Shown: positions 16,708 to 52,041 of the stretch, piece after piece
How positions within the stretch are numbered: position 1 is the first letter of the stretch
Layout of the letters: each line of letters starts with the position of its first letter
Source: a virus
Direction: 5' to 3' (one strand)
IMG/VR virus record: IMGVR_UViG_3300032236_000552
Coordinates: 35,865-99,864 of that record
DNA length: 64,000 bases
The notes under the pieces: model-generated
What the model was told of the DNA's origin: nothing
Database searches by the model: none
The model's input: only the letters and a program-made list of their open reading frames with translations
Made by a program: the position numbers and the translations under genes

Positions 16708-17157
16708 ATGGCATCTTGGACATCATTAGGTCATGCCATGCGTCGTCGCATGGGTGCACCATCAAACCATCTAGAGTCAGCAGGTAAATCTATGGCACGT
16801 AACATTTCAACCCCAGAGGAAGTTATTGCTTCTGCAGAGCACGCTAACAGCCCACGTAAGTATGTTGGTCAATCAACAGGCTTCGAGGCAGTAAAGCCAG
16901 AGCGTGGAACGCTTGTTGCTAAGAAGAACACACAAGCATCTAACCCAACCGCTGGCGGAAAAACAAACAAGAAGAATGTTCTTGCAGGAAATGCAGCAGC
17001 ATCAGAGCGCATGGGTGCACGCTATTCAACAAGCGTCAAGTTCCCAGCAGGAACTGAGCCAGCAGCAGCGCCAACAATGCGTAATGCAAAGACGGTTCCT
17101 TCAGTTGCTGGACGTCAAGCACCTAACTTTGATAGCGGGATGAATAGCGTTCTCTAA
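16708..17157 (+). CDS. Basic low-complexity hypothetical protein
   Basis: SD AAGGAG; Ala/Lys/Ser rich. Confidence 0.7.
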   Translation: MASWTSLGHAMRRRMGAPSNHLESAGKSMARNISTPEEVIASAEHANSPRKYVGQSTGFEAVKPERGTLVAKKNTQASNPTAGGKTNKKNVLAGNAAASERMGARYSTSVKFPAGTEPAAAPTMRNAKTVPSVAGRQAPNFDSGMNSVL

Positions 17158-17414
17158 TGTCTATTCTCTCTGACAACCAGTTTCATGAGAGTGTAACGCC
17201 TGAACAGTCACATGTTGAGGCGCCACTCTCATTGAGTTCATCCACAAACAATTCCGCTGCACAGGCAACTGCGTGGCGTAACTCTTCTTTGGGTGGAGGA
17301 CGTCCTCTCTCGTTCTCATCAAAGACACGTGGTACAACGTTTAACTGGGATGACGCACCAAAGGCATCACTGCCATCATCAGACACGGGCGCATCGTTCG
17401 GAGGCAAAGAATGA
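17157..17414 (+). CDS. Ser-rich protein with N-terminal LSDNQF motif
   Basis: Coupled TAATG start. Confidence 0.7.
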   Translation: MSILSDNQFHESVTPEQSHVEAPLSLSSSTNNSAAQATAWRNSSLGGGRPLSFSSKTRGTTFNWDDAPKASLPSSDTGASFGGKE

Positions 17415-18025
17415 GTCAAGAACACCTCAGCCACTCAGAGTTTGCTGATGTAGTAAACAAAGAAGGTGGCGCAAGCCGTAACTTCCAAACCAGTGCACCT
17501 GCAAAAGGTCCTGGTGTTATGGTGTCTATCCCTGGTGCAGAGAAGATTACAAACGCTCCTCTTACTGCAGACCAAGCAAAGTCATTCCGTAGAGACCACG
17601 ATGCCATGGCAACGGGAAGTGACTACCACGGTGCTTGGAAATCTGGCGACAAAGTTTTCCAAGATGTTAGTCGTAAGCACACCGATTTAGACAGCGCACG
17701 TAAGGCTGGAGAGCGTGACAAGCAAATTGCTGGTTACGATTTAGGCGGAACTGATGAGCGTCGTCCAGAAGGTGGCGAAGTATTCTTTGGTCGCCATGTT
17801 CCAGGAATTGAAAGCAACGAAGAGTTCAAGGGCGGAAAGAACAAGACAAGCCAACAAGAGCGCATGTCTCCAAAGCCAAGTAGCCGTTCACAAGAGTTTG
17901 CAGAGCAATCACATATTAGCCGTGGTGCAACTGTAGGCAAGCGTGGTGGCAAAGGTACAAAGAAGATTTCTATTAACGAAGTTTACGCAACAATCGCAAA
18001 GAACCGCCGAAACAGAGGCGTCTAA
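17411..18025 (+). CDS. Hypothetical protein with N-terminal HLSHSEF motif
   Basis: ATGA overlap; 204 aa. Confidence 0.7.
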   Translation: MSQEHLSHSEFADVVNKEGGASRNFQTSAPAKGPGVMVSIPGAEKITNAPLTADQAKSFRRDHDAMATGSDYHGAWKSGDKVFQDVSRKHTDLDSARKAGERDKQIAGYDLGGTDERRPEGGEVFFGRHVPGIESNEEFKGGKNKTSQQERMSPKPSSRSQEFAEQSHISRGATVGKRGGKGTKKISINEVYATIAKNRRNRGV

Positions 18026-18558
18026 TGGCAGGGGCCACTAATAACTTTTCGCCACAACAAAACTGGCAATCGCTAGGTGGTAATGGTTTTTATGGCTACA
18101 ACAACCAGGGCGGTGCTGGTACACCTGTAGCACGTGACCCACTTGACGCTACCCGTATTGGTGTAGGCCGTGTTCCTTCTGCAGAATATCCTGACGGTTA
18201 TCTCGGAACGATTCGTTCACGTCGTGATGACCGCCTACTTGATTCCATCAAAAGCCGTGTCAACCAGAAAGCCTATCAACGTGGTGTACACAAGGGTGAG
18301 CGCATTGAGCCATCCATGTACTTTTGGCCTGACAGCATCAACCCTATGATGGGTATTCAACGCCAGATGGCAGCGACCGTAGACAAGTCCAACGGAGTTA
18401 CCGTTTATCGCACACTTCGTAACGCCCCACAAGTTGCCCTTACTCCTGCCCCTCACCTTGTTAATGATGGCAAGGCAAACACTGTTGCAGAGGAGCCAGG
18501 TCAAATTAACGAACGTCGTCAGGCGATGCTCGCTTACTTGAAACCAGCGTGGCGCTAA
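18025..18558 (+). CDS. Hypothetical protein
   Basis: Coupled TAATG start; 177 aa. Confidence 0.7.
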   Translation: MAGATNNFSPQQNWQSLGGNGFYGYNNQGGAGTPVARDPLDATRIGVGRVPSAEYPDGYLGTIRSRRDDRLLDSIKSRVNQKAYQRGVHKGERIEPSMYFWPDSINPMMGIQRQMAATVDKSNGVTVYRTLRNAPQVALTPAPHLVNDGKANTVAEEPGQINERRQAMLAYLKPAWR

Positions 18559-18920
18559 TGACGCAAACGTTTGACGGCAATTACGATTACACCAAGCCTT
18601 GGCGTGCACCGTTACAGCCTGACCAGATTGCTAAGAAGTGGCAGTACAACGGCCCATGGGCAACCAACATGGAGCGCCTAACTTCTCAAGCGTTGATGGT
18701 TATGTCTATCCCAGGTGCAGAACTGCAGGCAATGGTACGCCCACCTATGCCACAGATTCGTTTGTTTCCAGACCGATATGGCTATGGAGACCGTTCACAA
18801 CCTGGCATCGAAGATGTCGTGAGTGTAGACCGTAATTATCACGAACCTCGTGTATCTTGGTTCTCTGGTGGAGTTGCTGGTTACGAGGCAGCCTCCCGTA
18901 ATGATTTGGGGAATAACTAA
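18558..18920 (+). CDS. Hypothetical protein
   Basis: Coupled TAATG start inside ORF 18549..18920. Confidence 0.65.
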   Translation: MTQTFDGNYDYTKPWRAPLQPDQIAKKWQYNGPWATNMERLTSQALMVMSIPGAELQAMVRPPMPQIRLFPDRYGYGDRSQPGIEDVVSVDRNYHEPRVSWFSGGVAGYEAASRNDLGNN

Positions 18921-19120
18921 TGTACAGCCCTCTTAGTTCACTTCAGCATTCGATGTTTAGAAAGCAACATCGCACGTTTGTAAAGAACCAGAAGCATCCT
19001 GTTGTGCCTAACCGTGCATCTGCCTATACAGCATACCCAACAGGCGCTGGCTCTAACCACACTAGCAAAGAACTGAACGTAAGTAACATGCGTTCATGGC
19101 ACGCTGGAGGTGCAAACTAA
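18920..19120 (+). CDS. Small basic hypothetical protein
   Basis: Coupled TAATG start. Confidence 0.55.
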   Translation: MYSPLSSLQHSMFRKQHRTFVKNQKHPVVPNRASAYTAYPTGAGSNHTSKELNVSNMRSWHAGGAN

Positions 19121-19329
19121 TGTCAGGTAACTATGGTGATGGCGCAGAGCCAATGGAATGGCAAGCCAAGACAATTGCCGAAAACGCAATGCGTTATAAC
19201 GGTTCAGCCCCATGCCCAACATGCGGCGTTATTATGAACCCAGTTGAATTTCTCAGCAACCGTGGACACTGTCTAGCCTGCACCACACAGATGAAGGCTA
19301 AGCGAGCACAGAACAAGATGGTGCGATAA
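19120..19329 (+). CDS. Small zinc-finger protein
   Basis: CPTCG...CLAC; SD GGAGG and TAATG coupling. Confidence 0.65.
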   Translation: MSGNYGDGAEPMEWQAKTIAENAMRYNGSAPCPTCGVIMNPVEFLSNRGHCLACTTQMKAKRAQNKMVR

Positions 19330-20243
19330 TGGCAAAGAAAAAAGCCAGCGATAAGGTTGGTATGACGCCTGAACGTCGTTCAGAGATTGATGCAGAGACA
19401 GCAAAGGCACTGGAAAGCGCTAGAGCGTCAGAAGAAGCACGTCGTGCCCGTAAGACCTCTACTTCGGTAAAAGGTCCTGACAGAATTTCTTTAGAAGAAT
19501 CAAAGGCAGCGGTTAAGAAGCGTAGTGCAAGCCGACCAACCGTTAAGCGAGACGAATCAACTGGCAAGATTGTTTCAGCAAAGCCGCCAAAAGCGCCAAT
19601 GACAGGCACTCCTGTTACTGTAGACGCCAAGACTCGTATCCTTCACTCAAAGACTGGCACAGTCGTTGCTAAGCCACGTAAGAAAACTCGTACTGGCAAG
19701 AAGTTAGACAAAGCCACAGGAAAGATTGCAATACCTACAGTAAAACGTGGTGAAGACGGCAAGGCTGTAGCAATCCCTAAAGAAGAACGTGTATCCCCTG
19801 TCACTCAGTTACCTACAGCAGGTCCTGATGTAATGGCGCCAAAGGGTCCAGCAGCACCGCTTGCTGGTCCACGTGGCGGAGTAAAGCCAAACAAGAAGAA
19901 CCTCAACAACCGAGGTAACCTCAAGGGGTTTGCTGTCTCCCACAAGATTGTGGCTGCAGCAGCAAATGCGGCAATGGGTCACCTACGTGCCATGCACCAA
20001 ACCCACGGCACCTCAGCCTTCCACGAACATCATGAGGTTTTTAACCTTATCCACGCCAATATCGCCAAGATGTCTCCAGATATCCACGCCATGTTAGGTC
20101 AGGGTCGCCACGAAGTGATGAACCCAGGTCCTGAAACTGGTAAGCGATTAAACGATGTAGAAAAGGCTGTAAACGATAGAATTACTATAGGCAAACAAGC
20201 GCAAGAGGCTCGTGCTCGGCGCCAAGACGAATCAAGAGGTTAA
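19329..20243 (+). CDS. Highly basic Lys/Arg/Ala-rich protein
   Basis: 304 aa; disordered basic N-terminal region, His-rich helical C-terminus. Confidence 0.7.
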   Translation: MAKKKASDKVGMTPERRSEIDAETAKALESARASEEARRARKTSTSVKGPDRISLEESKAAVKKRSASRPTVKRDESTGKIVSAKPPKAPMTGTPVTVDAKTRILHSKTGTVVAKPRKKTRTGKKLDKATGKIAIPTVKRGEDGKAVAIPKEERVSPVTQLPTAGPDVMAPKGPAAPLAGPRGGVKPNKKNLNNRGNLKGFAVSHKIVAAAANAAMGHLRAMHQTHGTSAFHEHHEVFNLIHANIAKMSPDIHAMLGQGRHEVMNPGPETGKRLNDVEKAVNDRITIGKQAQEARARRQDESRG

Positions 20244-20247
20244 TATC

Positions 20248-20454
20248 ATGGCAGTTAATTCATCCCGTTCGATGAACAACTCTCTTAACGAGGGCGCAAC
20301 AGACGGTAAGTACCGCAAGGTTCGTCCAAACACTGAAGTCATGCCAGGACTTGGTGACTCAGCAACTGCTGACAACCGCCAATCACTCAACCCATTCTGG
20401 GGTTACGGTTTCCTTACATCTGATTATCCAAACAAAGTGAATCCAGGTAAGTAA
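20248..20454 (+). CDS. Small hypothetical protein (MAVNSSRS...)
   Basis: SD GAGG upstream of ATG 20248. Confidence 0.65.
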   Translation: MAVNSSRSMNNSLNEGATDGKYRKVRPNTEVMPGLGDSATADNRQSLNPFWGYGFLTSDYPNKVNPGK

Positions 20455-20456
20455 TC

Positions 20457-20825
20457 ATGGCAATTATCCGCAAAGGCGATGCACAAGCAACTCGTGAATT
20501 AGCAAAACGAGCAATCAAGCAACAATCTGCTCGTAGTCGTGCCTCTAAGAAGTCATTAAACGAGGCTGGGTTAGTAGACAACTACTTAAATGAGCGTAGT
20601 GTCATGGTTAACCCAGACGGAACTGCAACAGCAAAGAACCCTCGTACTGGACGTCGTGAAGCATTTGAAGGTCCTATCAGCGGTAGCAACACTATGCTAA
20701 ACAAGAAGATGGTAAAAAGAAATCGTCAAACATTAGGTTCTGGGGTTATTAAAGCAGGAAAAGTTGTAAAGGGAAGCGCTTCACTGTTAAAAAAACCACA
20801 ACCTAAAAAAACAACAGGTAAGTAA
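20457..20825 (+). CDS. Basic hypothetical protein flanked by 20-bp direct repeats
   Basis: CAGGTAAGTAATCATGGCAA at 20444 and 20815. Confidence 0.65.
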   Translation: MAIIRKGDAQATRELAKRAIKQQSARSRASKKSLNEAGLVDNYLNERSVMVNPDGTATAKNPRTGRREAFEGPISGSNTMLNKKMVKRNRQTLGSGVIKAGKVVKGSASLLKKPQPKKTTGK

Positions 20826-20827
20826 TC

Positions 20828-21022
20828 ATGGCAACAATGGTTCCAGACCGTGGAGATAGCCCAAAGCGTAAAGTTCGTTTTTATGACGAAAAAAGCGGTA
20901 AGTCACACACTGCTGATGTTCGCTGGGTAGGGAAGAAAACCCAAAAGCCACATGCAGGTGACATCAAAAAGAACATGAAGCATTATGGACAGACTAACTC
21001 AGGATGGGAAGTACAAGACTAA
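20828..21022 (+). CDS. Small basic hypothetical protein
   Basis: 64 aa ORF in operon. Confidence 0.6.
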   Translation: MATMVPDRGDSPKRKVRFYDEKSGKSHTADVRWVGKKTQKPHAGDIKKNMKHYGQTNSGWEVQD

Positions 21023-22235: not shown

Positions 22236-23168
22236 ATGATTAGTCCATTTGGGAGTAACGCTCAACCCGTCCATATTCAGGGTTCCGCTACCTCCTACTT
22301 CTCTGCCCCTGAGCAAGAGTTAGACCCAACTCTGTTCGATGGCGAGAAGATAAAGGGCTGGGTACGTAACGGAATCCTGCAACTTCTTTTTGGGTTTCTC
22401 AACGAGACATACCGCAACCCTGACCTATGGGCACACGTATGGATTGCTGGTTCAGGAGTCTCCTACCAGTGGTCTGCTGCTCGTCAGCCAGGAGACTTAG
22501 ACGTCTTAATCGGCGTTAACTACATTCAGTTCCGTCGAGTACAGCCAGAGTACGCTGGTCTATCTGATGTTGAAATCAGCAAGATGTTGAACGAAGATTT
22601 CCGTGAGCACCTACAACCAGACACAGAAAACTGGAATGGTTATGAGGTCACGTTCTACGTGAATCCAGGCGCCACAGACATAAAGACGATTAACCCTTAC
22701 GCTGCCTACGACCTTACACACGATGACTGGACAGTCCGACCTTCTAAAGAAGGTGCACCACACAATGCAGTGTGGGACATGATGGCCCAACGGGACTTGT
22801 CTATGACCACAGATATCGTGAGCCGTTACACACAAGCCATTACCGAGATGCAAGCGGCTCAGAACGACGCCGCACGACGTAACGCCGAATTCCGTATGCA
22901 CTCTGCACTCATGCAGGCATCAGCACTTTACGACGATATCCACCACGCACGTAGATATGCGTTCAGCCCAACAGGTAAGGGCTATGCAGACTTCTACAAC
23001 TACAGGTGGCAAGCAGGCAAGAAGTACGGAAGCGTACCTGCCTTACGTAAGATGTCTGAGTACTGGTCAGCCTACAAAACACAACAAGCAGACGATACCT
23101 ACGGTGTTGAACTGCCAGATACTCAGACCCTCATTCGACGGGCGGCAACATATAGGGCGCATGGATAA
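22236..23168 (+). CDS. Pol-beta superfamily nucleotidyltransferase
   Basis: hG[GS]-x-DxD motif: IAGSGVSY...GDLDVLIGV; later YEVTFYVN. Confidence 0.8.
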   Translation: MISPFGSNAQPVHIQGSATSYFSAPEQELDPTLFDGEKIKGWVRNGILQLLFGFLNETYRNPDLWAHVWIAGSGVSYQWSAARQPGDLDVLIGVNYIQFRRVQPEYAGLSDVEISKMLNEDFREHLQPDTENWNGYEVTFYVNPGATDIKTINPYAAYDLTHDDWTVRPSKEGAPHNAVWDMMAQRDLSMTTDIVSRYTQAITEMQAAQNDAARRNAEFRMHSALMQASALYDDIHHARRYAFSPTGKGYADFYNYRWQAGKKYGSVPALRKMSEYWSAYKTQQADDTYGVELPDTQTLIRRAATYRAHG

Positions 23169-24073
23169 TGGCGTCACTAAACGGAAGCCAATTTAGCGGG
23201 CTACACGCCCCATCCATGTCTACAGGGGTCAGTCAAACTGCCTCAATGTCCAATCCTCCAACGACCATGACTGGTCAAGTATCTACACCAGGTAGTGCAA
23301 GTGCGATAACAAACGCAGTTAAACAAACCACTGGCGTTAGTGATTTTCAGGCTGCTAGTCGTTCGTTTGCTAAAGGCGGATTTGGCAACACAATGGCTGG
23401 TATTGGTCACTCTATCATGGGTGGAATTAACGCTGCCTCTACAGCGTCGATGGCAATTCCTGGAGTTGGTGAAGGAATTAAGGGTGCAGACATTGGATTG
23501 AATCTTGCAATCAAAGGCGGAGACGTCTTTAAGGCTGCAGATGCAACGATGGCTGCTGAAAAAACAGGAACAGCCGCAAAGGTTGTTTCTAAAGCAGCGG
23601 ACACACACCTAAGCCCATCACAGTTTACGCACGAAACCCCTACTCTTTATCACGGTACTGGTGCAAGCATAAAGCCTGGAGCCGTAGTTGCACCTAAGCC
23701 AACAGGTGTAGCAGGAACAGACGCTGCATGGGCTACCCCAGTGGGCAGTCTTGCAGAAAGGCACGCAGCGGCTCATGCGATGGGACTAGGAGCCGATAAG
23801 CAAATGGCATTTTGGTCTCCTGTTTATAAGGTTTCCCCAGTAGATGCCGCTGAGATGTCAAAGACCACAAGCGCATTTGCTAAGAACCCAGCGATACCTC
23901 ACGGTGATATAAAAATGGGAGTTACAGAGTTTGCGTCTAAAAAAGGGTTTACAGTCGATAAGGTAAGCCATCTAGTTGAGAATCCTGAACTAACAAAACC
24001 TGCAGTACCACAAGTTTCACCTCCTAAGCCTACTGCACCAAGACTCTCCTCTAACACAAGGGTGCTCGATTAA
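23168..24073 (+). CDS. Low-complexity N-region plus Arr-like ADP-ribosyltransferase domain
   Basis: LYHGTGASIKPGAVVAP...AWATP...AERHA...VYKVSP resembles rifampin ART (Arr) strand motifs. Confidence 0.6.
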   Translation: MASLNGSQFSGLHAPSMSTGVSQTASMSNPPTTMTGQVSTPGSASAITNAVKQTTGVSDFQAASRSFAKGGFGNTMAGIGHSIMGGINAASTASMAIPGVGEGIKGADIGLNLAIKGGDVFKAADATMAAEKTGTAAKVVSKAADTHLSPSQFTHETPTLYHGTGASIKPGAVVAPKPTGVAGTDAAWATPVGSLAERHAAAHAMGLGADKQMAFWSPVYKVSPVDAAEMSKTTSAFAKNPAIPHGDIKMGVTEFASKKGFTVDKVSHLVENPELTKPAVPQVSPPKPTAPRLSSNTRVLD

Positions 24074-24574: not shown

Positions 24575-26079
24575 TGAGAATCGTCTTTAGCGGAGCCGAG
24601 GTAGGCTCTAACCGTACCCTTTTGGAAGGTCAGAAAGTTGAGTTGATGGGACTCAACTTTTGGGGCTTACGCAAAAGAGGTTTGCCCAAGAATAAGATTT
24701 GGCTGATATCAGAGCACTTCCATGAGGACACCAAAGTCATCATTGAGTCTGGAGCGGCCCAGGCAGATAAGGCAGGACTCTCTAAAGAAGAGTTACTTTC
24801 TTTAGCAGCCGAATACCAGGAGTTCCTGGTCAATAACGCAGACAGGGCCACAGCGTTTACTGAGTTTGACTCCCTAGTTTTGGGAAAGGACTGGGTAGAA
24901 GCCCAGCGCCCCTTCTTTGAGAACGACCCAAAGTACTGGGTGGTCTGGCATGAGGAGTACGGTCTGCCAGCCCTCAAAGCGCTCTCTGAGGACTACGAGA
25001 ACGTCGTTATACCCAACGCCGAGATTGAGTCTGTAACCAGCCTCTCAGCCCTCACAAGGGCGTATGAACGTCAATTCGGAACACGGTTCCACGCCCTTGC
25101 CTGTGCCAAGCCAGACAACCTACGACAGATACCATTTGTGACCGCCAGCACATTGTCATGGCTATCTCCCATGCGGAGAGGCGAAACAATCGTCTGGGAT
25201 GGAACCAAGTTGAACCGCTATCCCAAGCGGATGAAAGACCAAGCCAGACCTCGATACAAGGCTATTGTGGAGAAGGCTGGACTGGACTATTTAGAGTTTA
25301 GTAAAGATAGTACCCTCGAAGCGACTAGAGTTGCAGTCTGGTCATACCTACAGATGGAGTCCTCCATGGATAAGAAAACCCCCAACTTCCACATCATCGA
25401 AGGCGGCAAAACCCCCAACTTATCTGATAACAGCGAGGATACCCTATATAGCAGTTTGATGGATTTAGGGGGGGTACCATCTGATAACAGTGGTGTTGAG
25501 ATGCGGAAAAATTCGCCAACTGAACTGGTAGAACGTGACGCTTCTGAGAAGGTAAACCTCCCTGTTTTCGGCTACAAGATGAAGACTGTGGTGGAAACCA
25601 ACGAGGACGGTAAAGACGTTCTCATGGACGTCCCTGTTGTTCAGACTCAGCAATCTTCTTTACGCCAGTGCGATACCTGCTTTGTGGCATCGAACTGCCC
25701 AGCCTTCAAGCCGCAAAATACCTGTGCCTTTAACCTGCCGATTGAGGTCAAGACCAAAGACCAACTCAAGGCTCTCATGGTCTCAATGATTGAAATGCAG
25801 GGTCAAAGAGTCGCTTTTATGCGTTTTGCTGAAGAAATGAACGGTGGATACGCTGACCCTAACGTCTCTCAGGAGGTTGACCGCCTCATTAAAATGGTCA
25901 AGGAAATCAACGACATGAACTCTGATAAAGAGTTTGTTCAGATAACCGCCAGCCGTCAATCCTCTGGTGGAGTCCTGTCTGCTATCTTTGGTGACAGGGC
26001 ACAAGCCCTAAAGGAACTCCCAGAGTCCCTGAAGGAAGACACTGTTACAAAGATTATCAAGTCTTCTATAGAAGATTAG
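24574..26079 (+). CDS. TGT/DpdA-like barrel protein (degenerate) fused to Cys-rich C-terminal domain
   Basis: VIIESGA (cf. DSGA), FHAL...L...PF.TASTLSW...RRG (cf. HxLG...PFxSxDSSSW); CDTC...C...C. Confidence 0.5.
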   Translation: MRIVFSGAEVGSNRTLLEGQKVELMGLNFWGLRKRGLPKNKIWLISEHFHEDTKVIIESGAAQADKAGLSKEELLSLAAEYQEFLVNNADRATAFTEFDSLVLGKDWVEAQRPFFENDPKYWVVWHEEYGLPALKALSEDYENVVIPNAEIESVTSLSALTRAYERQFGTRFHALACAKPDNLRQIPFVTASTLSWLSPMRRGETIVWDGTKLNRYPKRMKDQARPRYKAIVEKAGLDYLEFSKDSTLEATRVAVWSYLQMESSMDKKTPNFHIIEGGKTPNLSDNSEDTLYSSLMDLGGVPSDNSGVEMRKNSPTELVERDASEKVNLPVFGYKMKTVVETNEDGKDVLMDVPVVQTQQSSLRQCDTCFVASNCPAFKPQNTCAFNLPIEVKTKDQLKALMVSMIEMQGQRVAFMRFAEEMNGGYADPNVSQEVDRLIKMVKEINDMNSDKEFVQITASRQSSGGVLSAIFGDRAQALKELPESLKEDTVTKIIKSSIED

Positions 26080-29544: not shown

Positions 29545-30870
29545 TCACTCCAAATAGTCATTAACAACCTCGGCTGCCTTTGACTGCTGGTGACGGATAC
29601 GGTGCAGATAACGCTCCGTCGTTGTTATCGACTGGTGACCTAGACGCTCTTTTACCTCATGGACATCAACGCCTTTTGTTAGAAGGAGAGTGGCGTTGGC
29701 GTGCCGTAAGTCGTGCGTTGTTGGATACCAGCCAATACTTGACTGGGTTATGGCTTCGTTCCAAATGGCTCGCCATTTATCACGAGGTAGATAGTCTTCG
29801 CTTTTGCTAAGGCTTTGGCTTCTGCTATTGCTTCTGCTACGGCTTTGGCTTTTGCTAAGGCTTTCTACTTTGCCTTTCGCTTTGTCCTTTCTATAGTGAC
29901 TGCGGTAATCCTTTACCGCTTGCTTGCATTGGTCACACCTACAACCTCCTACGTTGTACGAGTAGGGTGTTGCGTGTTGGAATGTTCTGCTTCCAACGGT
30001 GTAACTTCCTTTGCTTTTGCTAGGACTTACTATTTTACTTGGCTTCTCTACAACTTGCTTCGAGAAGACCAAATCTTCTTTTGATAGGGCTTTTGCTGAG
30101 ACAAACGCCTGGATTTCGGCTATCAACGAAGAACTTAGTGTAACAGTCCTCTTATGACCGTTCTTTGTGCGTGGCTCTACCGCAAATCTTCGCAGGTCGG
30201 AACTATATTTTTTGCCTACATCTGAGACTGTTCTTCTTATATACACTTCTTTTGAGGTAAAGTTAAAGTCTTTAACACGCAACTCTGTTGCTTCTCCAAA
30301 CCGACAACCAGAACCCATCAGAAATCTGGCAAATAACTTTGCGCCGTCTGTGGGTAACTTCTTTACGATAGCCTGAAAGTCTTTAGCGTCTAGCGTGTAG
30401 GTTGGGTCGGGTCTTACTATCTGAACTTTGATACGGTGGGTTGGGTTGGTTGGGATTACCTCATCATCAACGGCTAACCTGAATAGGTATCCTAGAGCCG
30501 TTTTGAGGTGGGAGATTGTGCTAGGGCTTATGCCCTGCTTCTGTAAGTCCTCTAGCAACTTACGTATATCTTGCTTCTTGATTGCGGTCATCTTCTTGCC
30601 TTCTAAAGTGGGCTGGGCATACTTCTTTAGAAGGGTGGTGTAAGTCTTTTTAGTGATAGCCCGTAGGTCTCGTCTCTCCAGCAATTTGTCCATATAAGTA
30701 TCGAACGTCTCTTGGTATTCGGGCAGGGTCTCAAACTCTCCTGCTTCGGCTAGGAGTCCTGCATTTAGGGCTTTGGCTTTGGTGGGGTAAGTTCCCACGC
30801 TTTTTGTCTTGCCCTCTGAATTGCGGTAATAGCCTGTATAACGCTTGTTACGTTCGACTACATACGCCAT
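29545..30870 (-). CDS. int: Tyrosine recombinase/integrase with inserted Zn-binding and Ser-repeat segment
   Basis: GCRFGEA (R), TKNG (K), HDLRH, LGH, TTERY catalytic residues; probable start MAYVVERN at 30870. Confidence 0.92.
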   Translation of the reverse strand: MAYVVERNKRYTGYYRNSEGKTKSVGTYPTKAKALNAGLLAEAGEFETLPEYQETFDTYMDKLLERRDLRAITKKTYTTLLKKYAQPTLEGKKMTAIKKQDIRKLLEDLQKQGISPSTISHLKTALGYLFRLAVDDEVIPTNPTHRIKVQIVRPDPTYTLDAKDFQAIVKKLPTDGAKLFARFLMGSGCRFGEATELRVKDFNFTSKEVYIRRTVSDVGKKYSSDLRRFAVEPRTKNGHKRTVTLSSSLIAEIQAFVSAKALSKEDLVFSKQVVEKPSKIVSPSKSKGSYTVGSRTFQHATPYSYNVGGCRCDQCKQAVKDYRSHYRKDKAKGKVESLSKSQSRSRSNSRSQSLSKSEDYLPRDKWRAIWNEAITQSSIGWYPTTHDLRHANATLLLTKGVDVHEVKERLGHQSITTTERYLHRIRHQQSKAAEVVNDYLE

Positions 30871-30894
30871 GACTTGCCCCCTTTGTGTGGCGTG

Positions 30895-30908
30895 GGTCAC
30901 GTGTGACC
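30895..30908. promoter_or_regulatory. Palindrome upstream of integrase
   Basis: GGTCAC-GT-GTGACC. Confidence 0.35.
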
Positions 30909-40740: not shown

Positions 40741-40877
40741 TAGTTAGTTACCTTTCGTAGAAGTGATACCAACGACATGAAGGACTCTCCTTCATCATCT
40801 ATAAGAAGTGTTACGCCTTGCTCATCAACTGTTGCGATAGTCATTTATTTATTTCTCCTTTTTCTTGTATCGGTTTA

Positions 40878-41087
40878 TTAGTGAGGATAAAGAAGGTCAA
40901 TGCAGTATTGCGATAGTTGTTCGATTGGCTTGTGCTTGCATACTTCGGGAGTTGTTATATCAAACAACTTATATATAACGTAGATTGCAACACCAGCGAT
41001 TAGTAATGCACGCAAACGCTTTCCACGTTTTGTTAATCGCCACGTTGTAGTTGTAGAAGTTCGCAGGTCGGATTTTTTGTTAGGCAT
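40878..41087 (-). CDS. Small single-pass membrane protein
   Basis: RLTKRGKRL followed by a hydrophobic helix. Confidence 0.65.
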   Translation of the reverse strand: MPNKKSDLRTSTTTTWRLTKRGKRLRALLIAGVAIYVIYKLFDITTPEVCKHKPIEQLSQYCIDLLYPH

Positions 41088-41307
41088 TATTTTCTACTCC
41101 TGTCTTAACACTAAACGGTGCTAACTGAATTGTTTTGTTAGTTAAATAAGTATCAAACAATTCAGTTGCAAGCATTTCTACGTAGTGTGTATTTAACTTG
41201 TCGGAGATTGCAGACCAGTCTGTCTTTTCATTATGAAGTGCAAAGTAGATAGCAACAATGTCTTTTGTTTCGAGAACGAGTGAACCAGTTGTTGAGTCAA
41301 TTACCAT
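41080..41307 (-). CDS. Hypothetical protein
   Basis: SD AAGGAG. Confidence 0.6.
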   Translation of the reverse strand: MVIDSTTGSLVLETKDIVAIYFALHNEKTDWSAISDKLNTHYVEMLATELFDTYLTNKTIQLAPFSVKTGVENNA

Positions 41308-41365
41308 TTGTATTTTTCTCCTTAGTGATTAGTTGATTGGTAGTTGTTATTACGTTGTTGTGCAA

Positions 41366-41725
41366 CTAGAAGTTAATCTGTCCGTAGATTGCTTGTTGTA
41401 AAACAAGATATGCAAAGCAACCGTCATAATCCTCATGGTCGAGTCGGTGACCGTAACAATGAGTCTGATTGTTCTTTAGCAAAGTTGCGTAAGCGTTTAG
41501 TAGTTGTTCGATATTAAGAACGCAAGGTAACTCCTTGTAATAACCGTTCTCATCTAAGTTATCAACGTCTAAGTATTGCAACGTAATAATTTGTGTGTCC
41601 TCGTTGTAATCCAAAGTACGTGGTACAACAAAGTCGGTGCAACCATAGAAGTCAGAACCAGTAATTGCGTCAAAGAACTCGGTGTTGTTGATTTCTTTTG
41701 TGATTGTGATTGTTGTTGTAGCCAT
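41366..41725 (-). CDS. Hypothetical protein
   Basis: SD AAGGAGCAACAAATAAATG. Confidence 0.7.
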   Translation of the reverse strand: MATTTITITKEINNTEFFDAITGSDFYGCTDFVVPRTLDYNEDTQIITLQYLDVDNLDENGYYKELPCVLNIEQLLNAYATLLKNNQTHCYGHRLDHEDYDGCFAYLVLQQAIYGQINF

Positions 41726-41789
41726 TTATTTGTTGCTCCTTTTTTATTAGTTGTTGTTGGTATTTGTTAGTAAGTTTTTTTGCAACTGA

Positions 41790-42260
41790 TTAAAGAGAAG
41801 CAAGTTGTGATTGCAACTCGTTGATTTGGCGAGTGATTACTTCCTTCTCAAAGTTAGAGAAAAGAAGTTCGACATATTTGTTAATGATTGTAAGCACGTA
41901 ACTTTCACCAGCGATAACTGCAATATCGTGCGCCTCCTGCAAACGTGAAGCGGTGTGACGTTCTACGTTGATGTTGTTGATGTTGATATGAGATGAGCGA
42001 GTACCTAAAGACGTTTTGTATTCGTTGTACCACTCACTAAATCCGTCAGGAGTTCCAACGTGATTGCGATAACCAACACGAATAACACTTTCGTAAAGTT
42101 CCCAACCACGTTGTTTTGTTGTTTCGATAGAAACAATTAAACCGAGAACCGAATACGTATTCGCCAAACCACTCTTAGATGAATAAGCGATTGACGAATT
42201 GTTTTTGATTGTTGCAGTTGTTTCGTTAATCAAGTGAGTTGTTAGTGTGCGTGTATCCAT
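41790..42260 (-). CDS. First gene of the leftward operon, hypothetical
   Basis: SD AAGGAGCAACAACTAAATG. Confidence 0.7.
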   Translation of the reverse strand: MDTRTLTTHLINETTATIKNNSSIAYSSKSGLANTYSVLGLIVSIETTKQRGWELYESVIRVGYRNHVGTPDGFSEWYNEYKTSLGTRSSHININNINVERHTASRLQEAHDIAVIAGESYVLTIINKYVELLFSNFEKEVITRQINELQSQLASL

Positions 42261-43190: not shown

Positions 43191-43684
43191 AAGTAAAAAC
43201 AATATGGGTAATAACTAATAGAGAGAGAGAGATATATATAGATAGATACTTACTTTAGTTGTGATGAATAGTGATGAATATATTTATATAACAACTGATA
43301 CACAATGCAAGTTAGTAACGTTGTTAAATAGTAAGTGATTAACAATGCGTTTAGTAACGTTGTAATGAGTTGATAAGAGCAAGGGAAGTGTGCCGTCAGT
43401 CTGGTATTGCACGCAGTAAGTATTAACAGATAGATAGCAGTAGCCAAATTGTTAAAGTAATTCACTATCATTTTCGCTATCAAACAAAGTGATTACGTTG
43501 TTATTACGCAGAGATAGAACAATAAATACTTCTTTAACAAACAAGTTGTTGGTGTAATCATTTAATTTTTTTGCAAAAGAGATATAGAACCACCCCATAG
43601 TTAAGTGATATTTCGCTAGTTAACAGCCAGGTTGGAGCCACGGTTGAGGGTGTGGAGGCTAGGCAGTAGCCGTAAAATAGCCCT

Positions 43685-43951
43685 ATGTCAGCCTCAGACC
43701 ACCTCAGTGGGCAATTCAAGCCCAAGCGCAAGGTGACCCTTTCCTATCAGTACAACGACAAGGGTGTCACTATGTGCCCTAAGTGTCACAAGAATGAGAT
43801 AGAGAGAGAAAAGCAAGGCAAAGGACATTTGAAACCCTCTACCGCTGATATCACTGTGAAGTACAACACTGACTTTGGTCCAGGAGACTTAGAGACCTGT
43901 TCTGGCGGATGCGGTAGAACCATCTACGGTCGCAAGGGTACTTACGAATAA
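43685..43951 (+). CDS. Zinc-binding protein with N-terminal HLSGQF motif (leaderless)
   Basis: TAAAAT-6nt-ATG; CPKC...CSGGCG. Confidence 0.7.
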   Translation: MSASDHLSGQFKPKRKVTLSYQYNDKGVTMCPKCHKNEIEREKQGKGHLKPSTADITVKYNTDFGPGDLETCSGGCGRTIYGRKGTYE

Positions 43952-44250: not shown

Positions 44251-44253
44251 CTA

Positions 44254-47180: not shown

Positions 47181-47992
47181 TGGCACTAGGAAATGTAGGA
47201 AACCCAGTTCCACCAGTTACCACTGCACAACCAGGAACAGTAGAGCGTATGCTTGAGGTTGCTAAGTCACAGGTTGGTGTTATCGAGGGTCCAAAGGATA
47301 ACGAAACACTTTACGGCGCTTTTACAGGCGCTAACTTCCAGCCATGGTGCGGCTCACTCATGATGTGGTGTGCAAAGCAGGCTGGCGTAACAATCCCTAA
47401 CACTGTTTACACACCTAACGGTGCAGCAGCATTCAAGAAGGCTGGTAAGTGGGCAGATGCAGCAAATGCTCATCCACAACCAGGCGACTTGATTTACTTC
47501 TCATTTATCCCACACGCACTTCCATCTAGCCCAATTCAACATGTGGGGATTGTCGTAAAGGACAATGGAGACGGCACTGTTACAACCATCGAAGGAAATA
47601 CAACCCCTGACTCAAAGCCAAAGGGTTCTCCTAACAATGGTGGCGAGTGCGCCATGAACGTCCGTGCATACAAGGTCGATAACAAGCGCCACCTCTGGTG
47701 CTCTATCGTCGGTTTTGGACGCCCAGACTACGCAGGTGCCGCAACAGACTCACACCCAGCCACTCCACCTGCCCCTAAAGCGGTCCCACCGTTCCCAGGA
47801 CAGGTTAAGCCAGGCGACAAGGGTGATGCGGTCAAGTTGATTCAACAAGCCCTTGATTTGGACGCTGATGGCGATTACGGCCCTGCTACCAAGAAGGCTA
47901 TCATCGCTATCCAAGACAGCCACGACGCTATCGATTCTAACGGAATCGTCGGTCCTAAGACTTGGGCCGAAATTATGAAGCATTTGGACTAA
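47180..47992 (+). CDS. Endolysin: CHAP domain + peptidoglycan-binding domain
   Basis: QPWCG, PQPGDLIYF, HVGIV, TIEGNT; C-terminal GDKGDAVKLIQQAL...DGDYGPAT...GIVGPKTW. Confidence 0.9.
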   Translation: MALGNVGNPVPPVTTAQPGTVERMLEVAKSQVGVIEGPKDNETLYGAFTGANFQPWCGSLMMWCAKQAGVTIPNTVYTPNGAAAFKKAGKWADAANAHPQPGDLIYFSFIPHALPSSPIQHVGIVVKDNGDGTVTTIEGNTTPDSKPKGSPNNGGECAMNVRAYKVDNKRHLWCSIVGFGRPDYAGAATDSHPATPPAPKAVPPFPGQVKPGDKGDAVKLIQQALDLDADGDYGPATKKAIIAIQDSHDAIDSNGIVGPKTWAEIMKHLD

Positions 47993-48007
47993 TCGGACAT
48001 TGAACAC

Positions 48008-48040
48008 AACCCCTCTAGCCTCTGGTAGGCTAGGGGGGTT
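48008..48040 (+). terminator. Hairpin after endolysin
   Basis: AACCCCTCTAGCCT-loop-AGGCTAGGGGGTT. Confidence 0.6.
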
Positions 48041-48061
48041 CTCACATTACTAGGAGGCAAG

Positions 48062-48634
48062 ATGACGACGATTGCAGCGATTCAGGGTAACGGTTGGGTT
48101 GTTATGGGTGCAGATACCCAAAGCACCGTTTCTGAATATAAGAGACTGAAGATGTCGAATGACAAAGTAATCGACAACAACGGAATCCTTATTGCTGGTT
48201 GCGGCATGGGTCGTGGCATGGATTTGCTACAGAAGGCGTGGAAAGCGCCTCGCCCACGCAAGGCACGTATGACTGTAGATGAACTAGACGCATGGATGGC
48301 AAAGACCTTCATCCCTCAAATGCGTAAGTTGTTTATCGACGGTGGATACGACATGAAGGATGATGGCGAGTACGCACAGCACGAAGGTGCGTTCATTGTC
48401 GCTGTACAGGGCGTTGTGTTCTACATTGACGACGACTACTCATTTGACCGTGAGGCTCGTGGTGTTACTTCGTCAGGTAGCGGTGGAGATTTTGCCGCAG
48501 GTTCTCTGTATAAGAAAGACCTCAGCACACTTGAGAAGGCAAAAAAGGAAATGGCTACTGCCATTGACGCTGCTAGAGAATACGATGTGTACTCTGGTGG
48601 AGAGACTAGGATTTATACACAAGTCGCAAAATAA
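48062..48634 (+). CDS. Ntn-hydrolase, proteasome beta / HslV-like peptidase
   Basis: N-terminal (M)TTIAA, GADTQ, downstream Lys, GSGG, D.YSGG. Confidence 0.8.
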   Translation: MTTIAAIQGNGWVVMGADTQSTVSEYKRLKMSNDKVIDNNGILIAGCGMGRGMDLLQKAWKAPRPRKARMTVDELDAWMAKTFIPQMRKLFIDGGYDMKDDGEYAQHEGAFIVAVQGVVFYIDDDYSFDREARGVTSSGSGGDFAAGSLYKKDLSTLEKAKKEMATAIDAAREYDVYSGGETRIYTQVAK

Positions 48635-48648
48635 GATAGGGTTAATAC

Positions 48649-48954
48649 ATGGAACAACTTTCAAATCGACAAAAGAAAATCGAATTAGGCAAGGCTCGTC
48701 AGTTAGAGACCTTGTTCGCTAAGCGACGCCAAGAAGCAGAAGAGCGCTGGACAAATGCTCAAATCAAGGCTGCAGGGTTTCAATCCGTGCTGGACTATGC
48801 GGTTGACCAATACACGCAGCACAAAGACGAGTTAGAAGAAGAAGTGATTACTAAAACAGAAGAAATGATTAAAGAACGTCAAGAAGAAATAAAGCAGTTT
48901 CTTATGACAGAGAAAGATATCTATTTAGAAAAGATGGGAATACAGGCGGACTAA
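48649..48954 (+). CDS. Coiled-coil hypothetical protein
   Basis: TAGGGT-6nt-ATG, leaderless-like. Confidence 0.65.
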   Translation: MEQLSNRQKKIELGKARQLETLFAKRRQEAEERWTNAQIKAAGFQSVLDYAVDQYTQHKDELEEEVITKTEEMIKERQEEIKQFLMTEKDIYLEKMGIQAD

Positions 48955-48955
48955 T

Positions 48956-49279
48956 ATGAACCCAAGTGATTTTGGATTAGAAGTAACAGTAGAGATTATC
49001 AATCCTGCAGAAGCAGAAGCATACCTAAAGAACAATGCTATGCACCGTAAGATTAAGCAGAAGAAGGTTGATGAATACAAGAACCAGATGGTGGACGGTA
49101 AGTGGCAACTCAATGGTAAGGCTCTTATCTTTGACTCCAACGGTCGTCTACTCAATGGTCAACATCGCCTTAGTGCCGTTGTGCAATCTCAAGTCCCACT
49201 CACCACAGTTGTGATTCGTGGAGTTGACCCATCGGTTCTAGAGACTAATCCTGAAAATGGCGTCATAATTGAGGAATGA
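48956..49279 (+). CDS. ParB-like N-terminal domain protein
   Basis: GRLLNGQHRLSAVV. Confidence 0.7.
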   Translation: MNPSDFGLEVTVEIINPAEAEAYLKNNAMHRKIKQKKVDEYKNQMVDGKWQLNGKALIFDSNGRLLNGQHRLSAVVQSQVPLTTVVIRGVDPSVLETNPENGVIIEE

Positions 49280-49737
49280 GTAAAAACCACGAATTCGAAA
49301 CTGGCTCTAACAAGCGCAGTAAGAAGGCTGTGATTTTTGACCTAGATGGAACACTGGCGGATATAGAGGATTATGAAGCGCTCCACAAAATTGATAGCGA
49401 CGAGTTTCGTGTTGCTGCTCGTCATGCCGAGGCTTATCCACACATTGTGGCTTTGGCAAAAGAGGCGAGAGCCAAAGGACGAGATGTAATCATCCTGACC
49501 GCCAGGTCAGCCCACTATAGGGACGACACCAAAAAGTGGCTTCATGCCCATGACGTCCCTTATGACCAACTCTTTATGCGCCCTATCGATAACCACGAGA
49601 AGGACAAGAAGGTCAAGAAAGAGATTCTGAAAGAAAACGTCTTGCCTAATTTTGAGGTCAAGAAAGCCTACGATGACAAGAAAAAGAATGTTAAAATGTT
49701 CCGTAGTGAAGGCATAGACGCAAAGAGGGTAAATTGA
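49276..49737 (+). CDS. HAD phosphatase (PNKP 3'-phosphatase-like)
   Basis: IFDLDGTL, ILTAR, LFMRP, YDD. Confidence 0.85.
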   Translation: MSKNHEFETGSNKRSKKAVIFDLDGTLADIEDYEALHKIDSDEFRVAARHAEAYPHIVALAKEARAKGRDVIILTARSAHYRDDTKKWLHAHDVPYDQLFMRPIDNHEKDKKVKKEILKENVLPNFEVKKAYDDKKKNVKMFRSEGIDAKRVN

Positions 49738-49878
49738 AGAAGCAAAAGCCACAGTTGGTTCAACCTACTTCGGGGGACTTTCGTCTAAACCAAACTGCAC
49801 CCATATTCAATGACAGGCGCACAAAACGTAATCGTGACCGTTCGACACAATCTCGGCAAGCAATCGAACGGAGTAAAG

Positions 49879-50325
49879 ATGAAAGATAACTTGAAACTTT
49901 TTTATAACATTATTTTCCGCATTATTGCGGCATTCACTGCAAGCGCCCTTGGCGTTATCGGTGCTGGTGCTGTAGCGGGTATCTCAACTATTAAGGCTAT
50001 GAGCGTTGCAGGTATTACTGCCGTTGCTGCTGTTGTTGAGAAGTTGGCTCGTGGATTCATGGATGATGGCAAGTTGACTCTCGATGAGATTAACGCTGCC
50101 TTCTCTGCGATTGACACTCAGGCTAAGACTGCTGCTGACCTTCAGGTTGAAGCACGTCAGGCAGGAACAGACATCACTGTAGGTGCAGACGGAACTATCA
50201 AGGCCGCTGCTCCAGCAGCACCAGCAGATGCTCCAGCAGCAGATGCTCCTGCTCCAGTTGTTGCTGACGGTCCTGCTCCAGTTGCAGTTCCAGCAGAAGC
50301 CGCTACAAACCCAAACTACAACTAA
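49879..50325 (+). CDS. Membrane protein (holin-like) with Ala/Pro tail
   Basis: Hydrophobic helices, DDGKLTLDEI; SD GGAG before ATG 49879. Confidence 0.55.
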   Translation: MKDNLKLFYNIIFRIIAAFTASALGVIGAGAVAGISTIKAMSVAGITAVAAVVEKLARGFMDDGKLTLDEINAAFSAIDTQAKTAADLQVEARQAGTDITVGADGTIKAAAPAAPADAPAADAPAPVVADGPAPVAVPAEAATNPNYN

Positions 50326-50498
50326 TTACCAGTTGAATAAAACCCTGAGCCTTTGAACTGAAGGCCAAAGGGAGTATAGACTCGCTGAAGAGCGTAGCCA
50401 CACGTATCGCAGACATACTTAGGTTCTGCATCGTGGATGCTACGCTCTTTTTCGTAGTTAATGTCGCACTCAATGCAGGCGTACTCATAAATCGGCAT
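50322..50498 (-). CDS. FmdB-family zinc ribbon protein
   Basis: MPIYEYACIEC...CDTCG...FKGSGFYST. Confidence 0.85.
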   Translation of the reverse strand: MPIYEYACIECDINYEKERSIHDAEPKYVCDTCGYALQRVYTPFGLQFKGSGFYSTGN

Positions 50499-50958
50499 TG
50501 TCGTCTTCCGTTTCATCTAGTGGAATACCGTTAACGTATTTCCATCTCCAACTATTACTGTTCTCTGCGGTAATTCTTCTGTGGCAGTTAGCGCATCTAA
50601 CTTCGCCCTTTTTTAACTCTTCTATAATCCTATCAATAGCAATGGTGTCACGTATGGCATGGTTAATGCCAAATTCTTTACCTGTTACGTGGTCAAACTC
50701 TAAAACCAGCAGGTCTGTCTCACCACAGTCTACGCAGGGGTTTTGTGCGTAGAAATCAGCCAGTAATTTACGTATGGCAACTTTTCGGGTCTGCCTAGTG
50801 GTGTATATTTTGTCTTTACGTGGCAATAAGTTCTTTTCGTAATCATCACGTTGATAGATGCTTTGGCAAGGTCTGCAGTAAGGCTGCACCCCACTTGCTC
50901 GCTTTTTGTTGTATTCCGTTAGTGGCTTTGTTTCACCACACATATTGCACGTCTTCAT
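50485..50958 (-). CDS. HNH endonuclease with N-terminal zinc finger
   Basis: CNMCGETK...CRPC; CVDCGE...LEFDH...CANCH; probable start 50958. Confidence 0.85.
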   Translation of the reverse strand: MKTCNMCGETKPLTEYNKKRASGVQPYCRPCQSIYQRDDYEKNLLPRKDKIYTTRQTRKVAIRKLLADFYAQNPCVDCGETDLLVLEFDHVTGKEFGINHAIRDTIAIDRIIEELKKGEVRCANCHRRITAENSNSWRWKYVNGIPLDETEDDNADL

Positions 50959-51128
50959 AGACAGCCTTTCACTCCGTATAGGTATCCCTATGCTTCTGCT
51001 CACAATACCGTGCTAAGGATGCAACCACAAATCGAGTGCCGCAAACCTCGCAGATGTATCTTTTGTCGTAGGCGTCTATGGTCTTATTATGCGCTTACAG
51101 TTACTGAAAAAGGGGGCAAAATTAGAGC

Positions 51129-51296
51129 ATGATTTCTCAACCACAATTTGGCTCACAAGCGATGTCTGCTAGTAAGCAGGCAACTCCTGAGTCTGACAAG
51201 TTTGATGGTCCAGGTGGAATCAACACTCCTGGTGGAGAGAACAAGTTTGCTGCTAATTCAAACGCTCCACTTCCAAAGCCAGGGTTCAGTTCATGA
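51129..51296 (+). CDS. 55-aa protein beginning MISQPQF (leaderless-like)
   Basis: Read by hand; CAAAAT-6nt-ATG; ATGA overlap with next gene. Confidence 0.55.
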   Translation: MISQPQFGSQAMSASKQATPESDKFDGPGGINTPGGENKFAANSNAPLPKPGFSS

Positions 51297-51496
51297 CAAC
51301 CGCAGTTAGCCAAAAAGAGTTAACTGCAGAAGACCGTTGTGACCGTTGCTCCGCTAGAGCGCTTGTTCGTGCAACTTTGACAAATGGTGAACTTTATTTT
51401 TGTGGTCATCACGCAAAAGAAACTGGGTACACACTTTTGATGAAGTCTGTGTCTGTGTATGACCCAGAAGGACTTCTTGATTATGCCGACCGATAG
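51293..51496 (+). CDS. Small actinobacterial-type zinc-binding protein
   Basis: LTAEDRCDRC.A.A...LYFCGHH. Confidence 0.7.
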   Translation: MTTAVSQKELTAEDRCDRCSARALVRATLTNGELYFCGHHAKETGYTLLMKSVSVYDPEGLLDYADR

Positions 51497-51702
51497 AATG
51501 TCAACGCCTCCTACGGCGTTCTCATATCCGTTAACGTCAACGGCGTACTACTACCAAGGACGTCCCACACCTTTTGCTCCCGATTCTTTCTACCAAATAG
51601 GTCATGGCATGTTTGGTGGACCAAATGGAACTTATGGCAGTTATTCTTACGGACCTAATGTCCAACCAGTAGACATGAAAAACGACAGACAGAGGCAAAC
51701 AG

Positions 51703-52041
51703 GTGAGTAATCTTAATTCAGCACAGTTCGACCGAGCATTCGACATTGAAGCACAGCAGACTCGTAAGAAGATGCGTCGTGGTCTTGAGGGCGCTTATGC
51801 AGGAATCGGAAGTAACTACGCTAATTACCCATACATGATTGGCGCTATGGGAACTGGTGGAGATATGACTGCTCACCATGAACAGGGAGAACTTTCTGAG
51901 AACATGGGAGAGACTGCAGAAGACCATGTCAATGAATCAATGGGTGCTGCAACTAATGGTGTTGTAGATACACAAGCAGCGGCTCCAACATCTGATGGTG
52001 GCGGCATTGGTGGAACTATGACTTCAGCGGTGGCAATGTGA
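51703..52041 (+). CDS. Hypothetical protein with N-terminal LNSAQF motif
   Basis: GTG start overlapping upstream ORF. Confidence 0.65.
   Translation: MSNLNSAQFDRAFDIEAQQTRKKMRRGLEGAYAGIGSNYANYPYMIGAMGTGGDMTAHHEQGELSENMGETAEDHVNESMGAATNGVVDTQAAAPTSDGGGIGGTMTSAVAM

Follow-up and report, generated by a model that had tools for sequence, protein, structure and literature searches.

The virus genome represented by IMG/VR record IMGVR_UViG_3300032236_000552 encodes a set of otherwise unrelated proteins that carry the same short peptide, hereafter the tag, close to their N-termini. We analysed a stretch of 64,000 nt (the window), corresponding to bases 35,865-99,864 of the 99,864-bp record, which is a complete phage genome (G000) with terminal repeats and 46% GC, and which belongs to a ~100-kb actinobacterial phage of a myovirus lineage. 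Comparison of related sequences shows the tag to be genuine: an N-terminal address peptide, kept by selection and portable, that belongs to an actinophage lineage. Its consensus across families is M-x-x-L-[S/N]-x-x-[Q/E]-F, with the Leu mostly at residue 4 and with the Phe and Gln/Glu near-invariant. The comparison also shows that selection acts on the peptide itself, that the tag has a long history in the lineage, and that it is found where protein modules join. As the probable interpretation we favour a portable docking motif, short and linear, that is recognized by one conserved partner; both the docking itself and the single reader are steps that we infer.

Two uncultured relatives were fetched whole, G001 (100,324 bp) and G002 (81,658 bp, 86% complete), and 80 related IMG/VR loci totalling 1.04 Mb were gathered via a conserved 177-aa gene that lies downstream of the tagged gene at position 17411. 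Across all 99,864 bp of G000, called genes contained four matches to the strict pattern L[SN]xxQF, three of these starting at residue 4, and all the remaining six-frame sequence contained only one. Within the first nine residues, three strict matches were observed against 0.014 expected, and none of 2000 per-protein shuffles reached three. As the pattern was defined on G000, G001 served as an independent test, and here two strict N-terminal matches were found against 0.013 expected from shuffles and four relaxed matches against 0.126 expected. Three further tags in G001 (MLSMSEF, VSNLSRKQF and MLSREQF) were masked by over-long open reading frame (ORF) calls or by the 40-aa length filter. The 80 related loci contained 94 strict matches against 3.6 expected, and the tag lay within the first eight residues of 32 proteins against 0.22 expected. 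These loci are kin and the events in them are not independent, so the count of families carries more weight. The N-terminal enrichment over shuffled proteomes on which an earlier note on this DNA had made its proposal depend was therefore found in G000 and repeated in both G001 and the loci. A chance origin of the tag is ruled out by the shuffles and by this recurrence.

BLAST clustering of the sequence following the tag gave 44 clusters in all, and identified at least 17 unrelated families with an N-terminal tag. The bodies of the tagged proteins were without similarity in this clustering, which rules out whole-protein paralogy. We also found 42 distinct nucleotide versions of the tag, which use all six Leu codons and encode its Ser by AGY in 20 cases and by TCN in 15. 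This diversity of codons indicates a constraint on the peptide and not on the RNA or DNA, and a nucleic acid-level signal such as a translational operator is ruled out by it. Among 47 ParB-like homologues, ranging down to ~50% identity, the Leu, Gln and Phe of the tag were at least 90% conserved, equal to the catalytic core. The earlier note had described a protein-level signal on otherwise unrelated proteins with differing codons, and this description was borne out; its term "protein-level convergence" stands with regard to the level of selection, but "convergence" is less apt, as the tag is an old, inherited and portable element of the lineage.

All seven peptides quoted in the earlier note were present in the window where it had placed them. 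Four fit the strict pattern, and three are looser, with Glu in place of Gln, one residue fewer, or Ile in place of Leu. An 85-aa disordered ORFan (17157-17414, on the plus strand, as are all of the tagged window genes), whose start is TAATG-coupled to the preceding gene, carries LSDNQF at residues 4-9 (17166-17183), and its orthologues retain the tag in G001 (MLSMSEF) and in the loci (MSDSLSSSQF, MSFLSSEEF and MPLSSTQF). The next gene (17411-18025) encodes a 204-aa protein with LSHSEF at residues 6-11 (17426-17443); further on, residues 158-163 (17882-17899) form SRSQEF, a second, degenerate copy that reads LSSQEF in relatives. This is the largest tagged family, with 23 members in the loci (including MSDNRPVLSDAQF, VVLSNAEF and MPLSNDEF), and an ESM Atlas search with the window protein returned viral hypothetical proteins only. 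Both of these genes come after the replication genes. A 301-aa effector encoded at 23168-24073 has two tags, LNGSQF (23177-23194) and an internal LSPSQF (23609-23626). Pfam and PHROG searches with the tagged window proteins gave no matches.

The remaining instances lie on the rightward arm. Its first gene (43685-43951), beside an AT-rich switch region, encodes an 88-aa protein in which LSGQF at residues 7-11 (43703-43717) is combined with a basic stretch and a Zn-ribbon, and the same layout was seen behind MSAEENLGKQF in G001 and MDNLNPNQF in locus L029. The ATG of this gene is preceded, at a distance of 6 nt, by a TAAAAT of leaderless type. A promoter-like sequence, GCAGTAGCCNTAAAAT, is common to window positions 43663-43687 and to G001 positions 24891-24920 (minus strand) and ends 6 nt before the ATG, which suggests a leaderless mRNA; in both genomes the first rightward gene headed by it is tagged. 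A possible 55-aa disordered ORF (51129-51296) has ISQPQF at residues 2-7 (51132-51149), and CAAAAT is located at the same spacing from its ATG as the TAAAAT at 43685. Its coding status is uncertain, because a similar-sized minus-strand ORF (51137-51313) overlaps it and no homologue was found. A GTG-started gene (51703-52041) encodes a 112-aa acidic, mostly disordered protein with LNSAQF at residues 4-9 (51712-51729), retained as VSNLSRKQF in its G001 orthologue. The ORFs at 51129 and 51703 stand at the head of the operon that runs into the genes for the large terminase (TerL) and the portal.

As a group, tagged proteins are richer in Ser, Thr, Gly, Asn, Gln, Pro and Ala (fraction 0.49-0.53 vs 0.43) and poorer in hydrophobic residues, and the tagged ORFans are fast-evolving and clustered in variable islands. 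Several families have two tags per protein, which suggests an oligomeric reader, and conserved internal copies were located in a 127-aa family (residue 38), a 186-aa family (approximately residue 95) and the 301-aa effector (residue 148). In the 127-aa family (L057:6605-6988, with homologues in L025, L038 and L054) the internal tag HGWLSGTQF is accompanied by a C-terminal ELWNK/GLWNQ tail, and tagged Streptomyces genes (loci L107-L112, ~8600-9980) end in GW[AML][RK]S-COOH, indicating that a second terminal motif travels with the tag. TerL itself has a very acidic 35-residue N-terminal extension ending in DELSQQF, kept in G001 and G002 (LSQQF and LSKEF), which is probably an ordinary helix start and not a tag. 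A literature search on the motif notation found nothing relevant.

The 301-aa effector provided the clearest view of how the tag is deployed. Its order is tag 1, a Ser/Thr-rich linker, a Gly/Ala-rich carrier at approximately residues 78-119 (23399-23524), tag 2 and an ADP-ribosyltransferase (ART) domain. In an AlphaFold2 model based on alignment A1, the N-terminal half was disordered and a domain at approximately residues 156-268 (23633-23971) was moderately confident. The top three Foldseek matches were structures of the rifampin ADP-ribosyltransferase Arr (2hw2, 9iaf and 9iba; E 5e-3 to 1e-2, probability 1.00, target TM-score 0.48-0.50), followed by other ARTs, so that in this predicted model the fold is closest to Arr. 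The opening strand [FY]HG[TS] is also shared with Arr (PDB 2hw2, Pfam PF12120), the best structural match, but identity is 14-17% and the domain here is fused to a carrier and tags. A Pfam search with the window protein itself gave no match; the Arr-ms profile (PF12120) scored a sub-threshold 15.9 bits in the short ART of G001, with the profile starting at the tag Phe, and exceeded the cut-off in distant ART homologues (26.4-29.7 bits). H162 was invariant among the ART homologues, and the acidic residue after the VxP strand was not. Both tags fell in low-confidence, disordered parts of the model, with a three-residue helix of low predicted local distance difference test (pLDDT) score at residues 150-152 inside tag 2, and the end of tag 2 is six residues ahead of LYHG, the first strand of the ART domain.

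ART homologues at 37-47% identity mostly retained both tags amid otherwise unalignable Ser/Thr-rich sequence. The most conserved part of the protein was not the enzyme, but the Gly/Ala-rich carrier (GIGHSIMGGINAASTAAM...KGGD). This carrier (GIGHSIMGGINAAST...) was invariant, and the C-terminus following it was an ART in G000 and G001 or a ParB-like domain in G002, where the same Gly-rich carrier is followed by RLSASQF and the ParB-like domain takes the place of the ART. Stand-alone tagged versions of both modules were present in G001, as a 118-aa Arr-like ART (MSASEF-FHGS) and a ParB-like protein (MSALNSKQF), and at the head of the rightward arm of this genome four consecutive genes all start with the tag. 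Distant short ARTs were also tagged (MAASDHLNGQQF-FHGS and MAAKDSLHPKQF-LHGA). Together, the alternative effectors behind one carrier and the stand-alone tagged versions indicate a layout of tag, linker, carrier, tag and exchangeable effector. The suggestion of the earlier note that the internal copy at the ART start reflects fusion of a tagged module thus gained support, as the copy marks a module junction at which effectors have been swapped. Longer fused forms of this ART protein were not found. In three multidomain proteins of 655-843 aa (P0065, P0073 and P0074), an Arr-like ART is preceded by a different junction peptide, HPRG(R)xGRW/F, and P0074 and P0073 contain GNAT and DUF4314 besides the ART; a fourth protein (P0068, 917 aa, with GNAT and Hint/intein domains) is without this peptide before its ART domain.

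The tag also has a history in Streptomyces. Prophages of the same type in this genus have a portal of 57-59% identity, located ~48 kb from the 177-aa gene, and collinear replication and tail genes. Tagged genes in these prophages were confined to a run of three in the replication/recombination module, which directly precede the 177-aa gene and carry SSLNTGEF, VLSTMQF, and MANLNPRQF plus FNASQF. Among cultured phages, the Streptomyces myoviruses BRock, Alone3, LuckySocke and others come closest (PMC7453282), with 54-55% identity in the portal; megablast and tblastn searches of the ART region against phage records matched no cultured close relative. In the lytic BRock and Alone3, only degenerate forms were found at the corresponding position (YLSRNAEF and ISRNAEF). 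The Streptomyces tags and these degenerate forms together indicate that the tag has long belonged to this gene neighbourhood; in the low-GC freshwater-type lineage it has multiplied.

The 177-aa protein (18025-18558, plus strand) is encoded directly downstream of tagged genes in all relatives examined, and is the most conspicuous conserved companion of the tag. It was 77-91% identical in the 80 loci and 42-61% identical in the Streptomyces prophages, with a conserved block VPSAEYPDGYLGT...RGVHKGER. It is a possible partner of the tag. As an identifiable hub it was set aside, since Pfam and PDB searches gave no match, its AlphaFold2 model had a pLDDT of 49.5, and a weak language-model lead to P22/SU10 portal fragments (0.92-0.93, few shared features) had no hidden Markov model support.

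A structural rationale for the tag is suggested by the combination of a hydrophobic staple and a capping box, h-[STND]-x-x-[EQD]-h, which is a classical helix-start rule and is reportedly due to Seale et al. in 1994, Munoz et al. in 1995 and Aurora and Rose in 1998. This pattern fits all tag instances. L-[SN]-x-x-[QE]-F would represent a helix start, with Leu at N', Ser/Asn as N-cap, Gln/Glu at N3 and Phe at N4. One capped helical turn may form within an otherwise disordered segment and staple the Leu and Phe into a two-pronged hydrophobic plug, which would enter a pocket on one conserved partner. In this way the phage lineage could deliver a varying assortment of accessory proteins to one site, including the Arr-like ART, the ParB-like nuclease/nucleoside triphosphatase, Zn-ribbon proteins and many small disordered proteins, and new cargo would be a module placed behind the tag, either stand-alone or fused behind the Gly-rich carrier. 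We base this docking interpretation on the enrichment, the single consensus in at least 17 families, the protein-level selection, the conservation in the ParB-like and ART proteins, the retention in Streptomyces and the swap of modules, and further on the disordered low-complexity context, the frequent double tags, the staple/capping pattern and the short helix modelled in tag 2.

Several observations weigh against docking on a single partner. No partner was found among the candidates considered, namely the HslV-like peptidase described below, the 177-aa neighbour, the beta-clamp and host genes. The helix-cap pattern is generic and was also present in helices of TerL (DELSQQF) and the portal (LGEEF), which implies that some matches are ordinary helix starts. 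Gly, Ser or Pro follows the Phe in most families, allowing one turn at most. Lastly, a universal reader does not account for the degenerate tags of BRock and Alone3.

The destination to which the tag would lead its carriers is less certain than docking as such. Our best single guess, offered tentatively, is virion loading for co-injection, and an intracellular hub is about equally likely. As a virion-loading address, the tag would dock cargo either on the tail or on some part of the prohead (portal, scaffold or capsid interior), and the ART, the ParB-like nuclease and the small proteins would be packaged and enter the host along with the DNA, the tag staying uncleaved. The capsid-targeting sequence (CTS) of T4 is a 10-residue N-terminal propeptide in which positions 4 and 7 are decisive and which is removed by the head protease, and the size, N-terminal position and two key hydrophobic residues of the tag parallel it (PMC9026906). 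The cargo types match the known or predicted injected proteins T4 Alt, P1 DdrB and the polyvalent proteins (PMC5512222), and distant ART homologues occur in polyvalent-type proteins (Arr-ms with GNAT, DUF4314 and Hint) behind the junction peptide HPRGxxGRW/F. The presence of the tag on fast-evolving ORFans of variable islands and the conserved N-terminal Gly-rich carrier with an exchangeable C-terminal effector, which is the layout of delivered toxins, are consistent with loading, as is the position of 51129 and 51703 ahead of TerL and the portal. The tag is also found together with a single portal/capsid type, in freshwater phages as well as in Streptomyces prophages; however, BRock has the same head genes and nearly no tags, and no head- or tail-module protein is tagged. 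The conserved internal copies and the ancestral location of the tagged genes in the replication module, where SpoVS/RuvC-type genes lie on one side and the 177-aa gene on the other, likewise speak against loading. We found no Peptidase_S78 or ClpP-type prohead protease in the complete genome (an S77 search was empty, as was its control) and no Phage_Mu_F domain. The earlier note had remarked that no prohead protease lies between portal and scaffold, and this holds for the rest of the genome too. Capsid loading of the tagged proteins, as proposed there, is plausible, with its T4-type version contradicted in part. If loading does occur, a myovirus lineage of Actinobacteria would package an exchangeable arsenal by means of an uncleaved nine-residue peptide, with neither prohead protease nor MuF, and would possess a second, mechanistically different CTS-type system outside the T4 group, a proposal that we regard as speculative.

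The ancestral location in the replication/recombination module instead suits an intracellular hub, whereby the tag would recruit accessory proteins to a conserved machine of host or phage, for instance the replisome, the recombination machinery, RNA polymerase or the nucleoid. Tags lie in disordered segments and are often multivalent, other short terminal motifs occur in the tagged proteins (the C-terminal ELWNK of the 127-aa family and GWxRS-COOH of the Streptomyces genes), and the tag core is unchanged across hosts as far apart as Streptomyces and 46%-GC freshwater actinobacteria, which fits a very conserved cellular target. Motifs resembling the beta-clamp motif were seen as QLDMF at residue 164, in the ART linker of G001 (40769-41800, minus strand; L008), and as QLSLF in the disordered linker of a Streptomyces tagged protein (L109, ~9200; QASLF in L108), but these matches were not statistically significant. 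The tag itself does not match the beta-clamp consensus QL[SD]LF or QLxLxL, since its Leu and Phe are spaced i to i+5 with a polar residue before the Phe, and consensus-like matches were rare. Host mimicry was considered as well; when three Streptomyces genomes were searched by pattern for host genes with the tag at their start, the matches did not exceed the control. A carrier with an exchangeable toxin is also less expected for proteins that act where they are made.

A processing, degradation or modification site, read by a protease that frees or destroys the proteins, by the phage's HslV-like peptidase or by a transferase that modifies the conserved Ser or Gln, appears improbable. Junction peptides are cleavage sites in some polymorphic toxins, and the internal copy sits exactly at the junction of carrier and effector. 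The phage encodes an HslV/proteasome-beta-type peptidase (48062-48634; phrog_1040, E 1e-23; N-terminus MTTIAAIQG) that is 88% identical in G001, and a nucleotidyltransferase-like gene is TAATG-coupled to the ART gene. However, the peptidase is absent from BRock, and as a reader it was rejected, as no homologue was found in five Streptomyces genomes carrying tagged prophage genes. No HslU-like partner was seen for it. No enzyme co-occurred with the tag in the loci examined, and a cut three to nine residues from the N-terminus would have little effect unless coupled to targeting. Less probable still, and in our view very unlikely, is that there is no common reader, the tag being only a favoured helix start (capping box) or a gene head that recombination has carried as a hitch-hiker from one small gene to another. 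The match to the generic staple/capping rule, its occurrence in ordinary TerL and portal helices and the clustering of tagged genes in recombination-prone islands would be expected in that case, but the enrichment is at least 100-fold and specific to the first eight residues, and the Phe and Gln/Glu are near-invariant whereas a generic cap allows any hydrophobic residue and Asp or Thr. Gly or Pro straight after the Phe in most families speaks against a helix, and deep conservation with free codon change speaks against hitch-hiking.

The tagged genes are embedded in a genome of otherwise recognizable organization. A replication module occupies ~420-16326 of the window (plus strand), with DNA polymerase-sized, RecA-like and WhiB-like genes, labels that derive from size and N-terminal sequence only. 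It is followed, just upstream of the tagged gene cluster, by a SpoVS homologue (16347-16670; Pfam E 4.5e-28) that is 86% identical in G001 and kept in BRock and Alone3. On the leftward arm are genes for a tyrosine integrase (29545-30900) and for an AAA_5/VWA pair of MoxR type. Towards the right end are a T4-type TerL (58631-60214), a portal of SPP1 type (61029-62756) and a candidate scaffold protein (62885-63631); the major capsid gene is divided across the ends of the record, and the contractile-tail module lies upstream of the window. Between 52311 and 58073, just upstream of the terminase, we also noted an 814-aa PA14-domain protein, whose N-terminus looks hydrophobic by eye only, a PASTA-domain protein (56613-57257) and a KTSC-domain protein (57273-58073), odd company for a packaging module.

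The tag is sharply defined and strongly selected, is shared by at least 17 families, has been kept both in Streptomyces prophages and in abundant freshwater actinophages, and precedes two enzyme classes typical of host-takeover or anti-defence effectors. The identity of its reader would give dozens of ORFans a common destination and show whether these phages inject proteins. If the tag does load cargo, its nine residues would be a minimal handle by which foreign proteins could be placed in actinophage particles. As an annotation rule, M-x-x-L-[SN]-x-x-[QE]-F at the start of a protein flags accessory cargo genes and aids the choice of start codon in this lineage. To our knowledge, very few systems in which unrelated phage proteins share a short address peptide have been described in detail, among them the T4 CTS and the clamp and acidic-tail motifs.

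Terminal docking motifs include the beta-clamp-binding QL[SD]LF and the acidic C-terminal tails of T7 gp2.5/gp4 and of the single-stranded DNA-binding protein SSB. As in these systems, one short, usually terminal, disordered and sometimes multivalent peptide is found on many unrelated proteins and would serve one hub, although the sequence of the tag matches none of them. MuF-type polymorphic toxins of temperate phages are carriers with exchangeable effectors. Unlike these toxins and the polyvalent proteins, the tagged proteins have no MuF or portal fusion, and most are small single-module or fully disordered proteins; in contrast to MuF toxins, the ART gene follows the replication module and the tagged genes are not in the head module. 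The likeness to polyvalent proteins lies in a conserved N-terminal carrier, exchangeable ART or ParB/Srx effectors and a short peptide before the effector (Iyer et al. 2017, PMC5512222). The T4 CTS differs from the tag in that it first docks on the scaffolding core and is then cut off by the gp21 prohead protease, whereas G000 has no detectable prohead protease; in addition, the two sequences are unrelated, and the tag is also conserved internally. The resemblance to the CTS of T4 IPI-III and Alt is that in each system unrelated, fast-evolving proteins, an ADP-ribosyltransferase among them, begin with a peptide of ~10 residues (Mullaney & Black 1996; PMC9026906, PMC3012670), and that specificity resides in two hydrophobic or aromatic positions, which in the tag would be Leu 4 and Phe 9.

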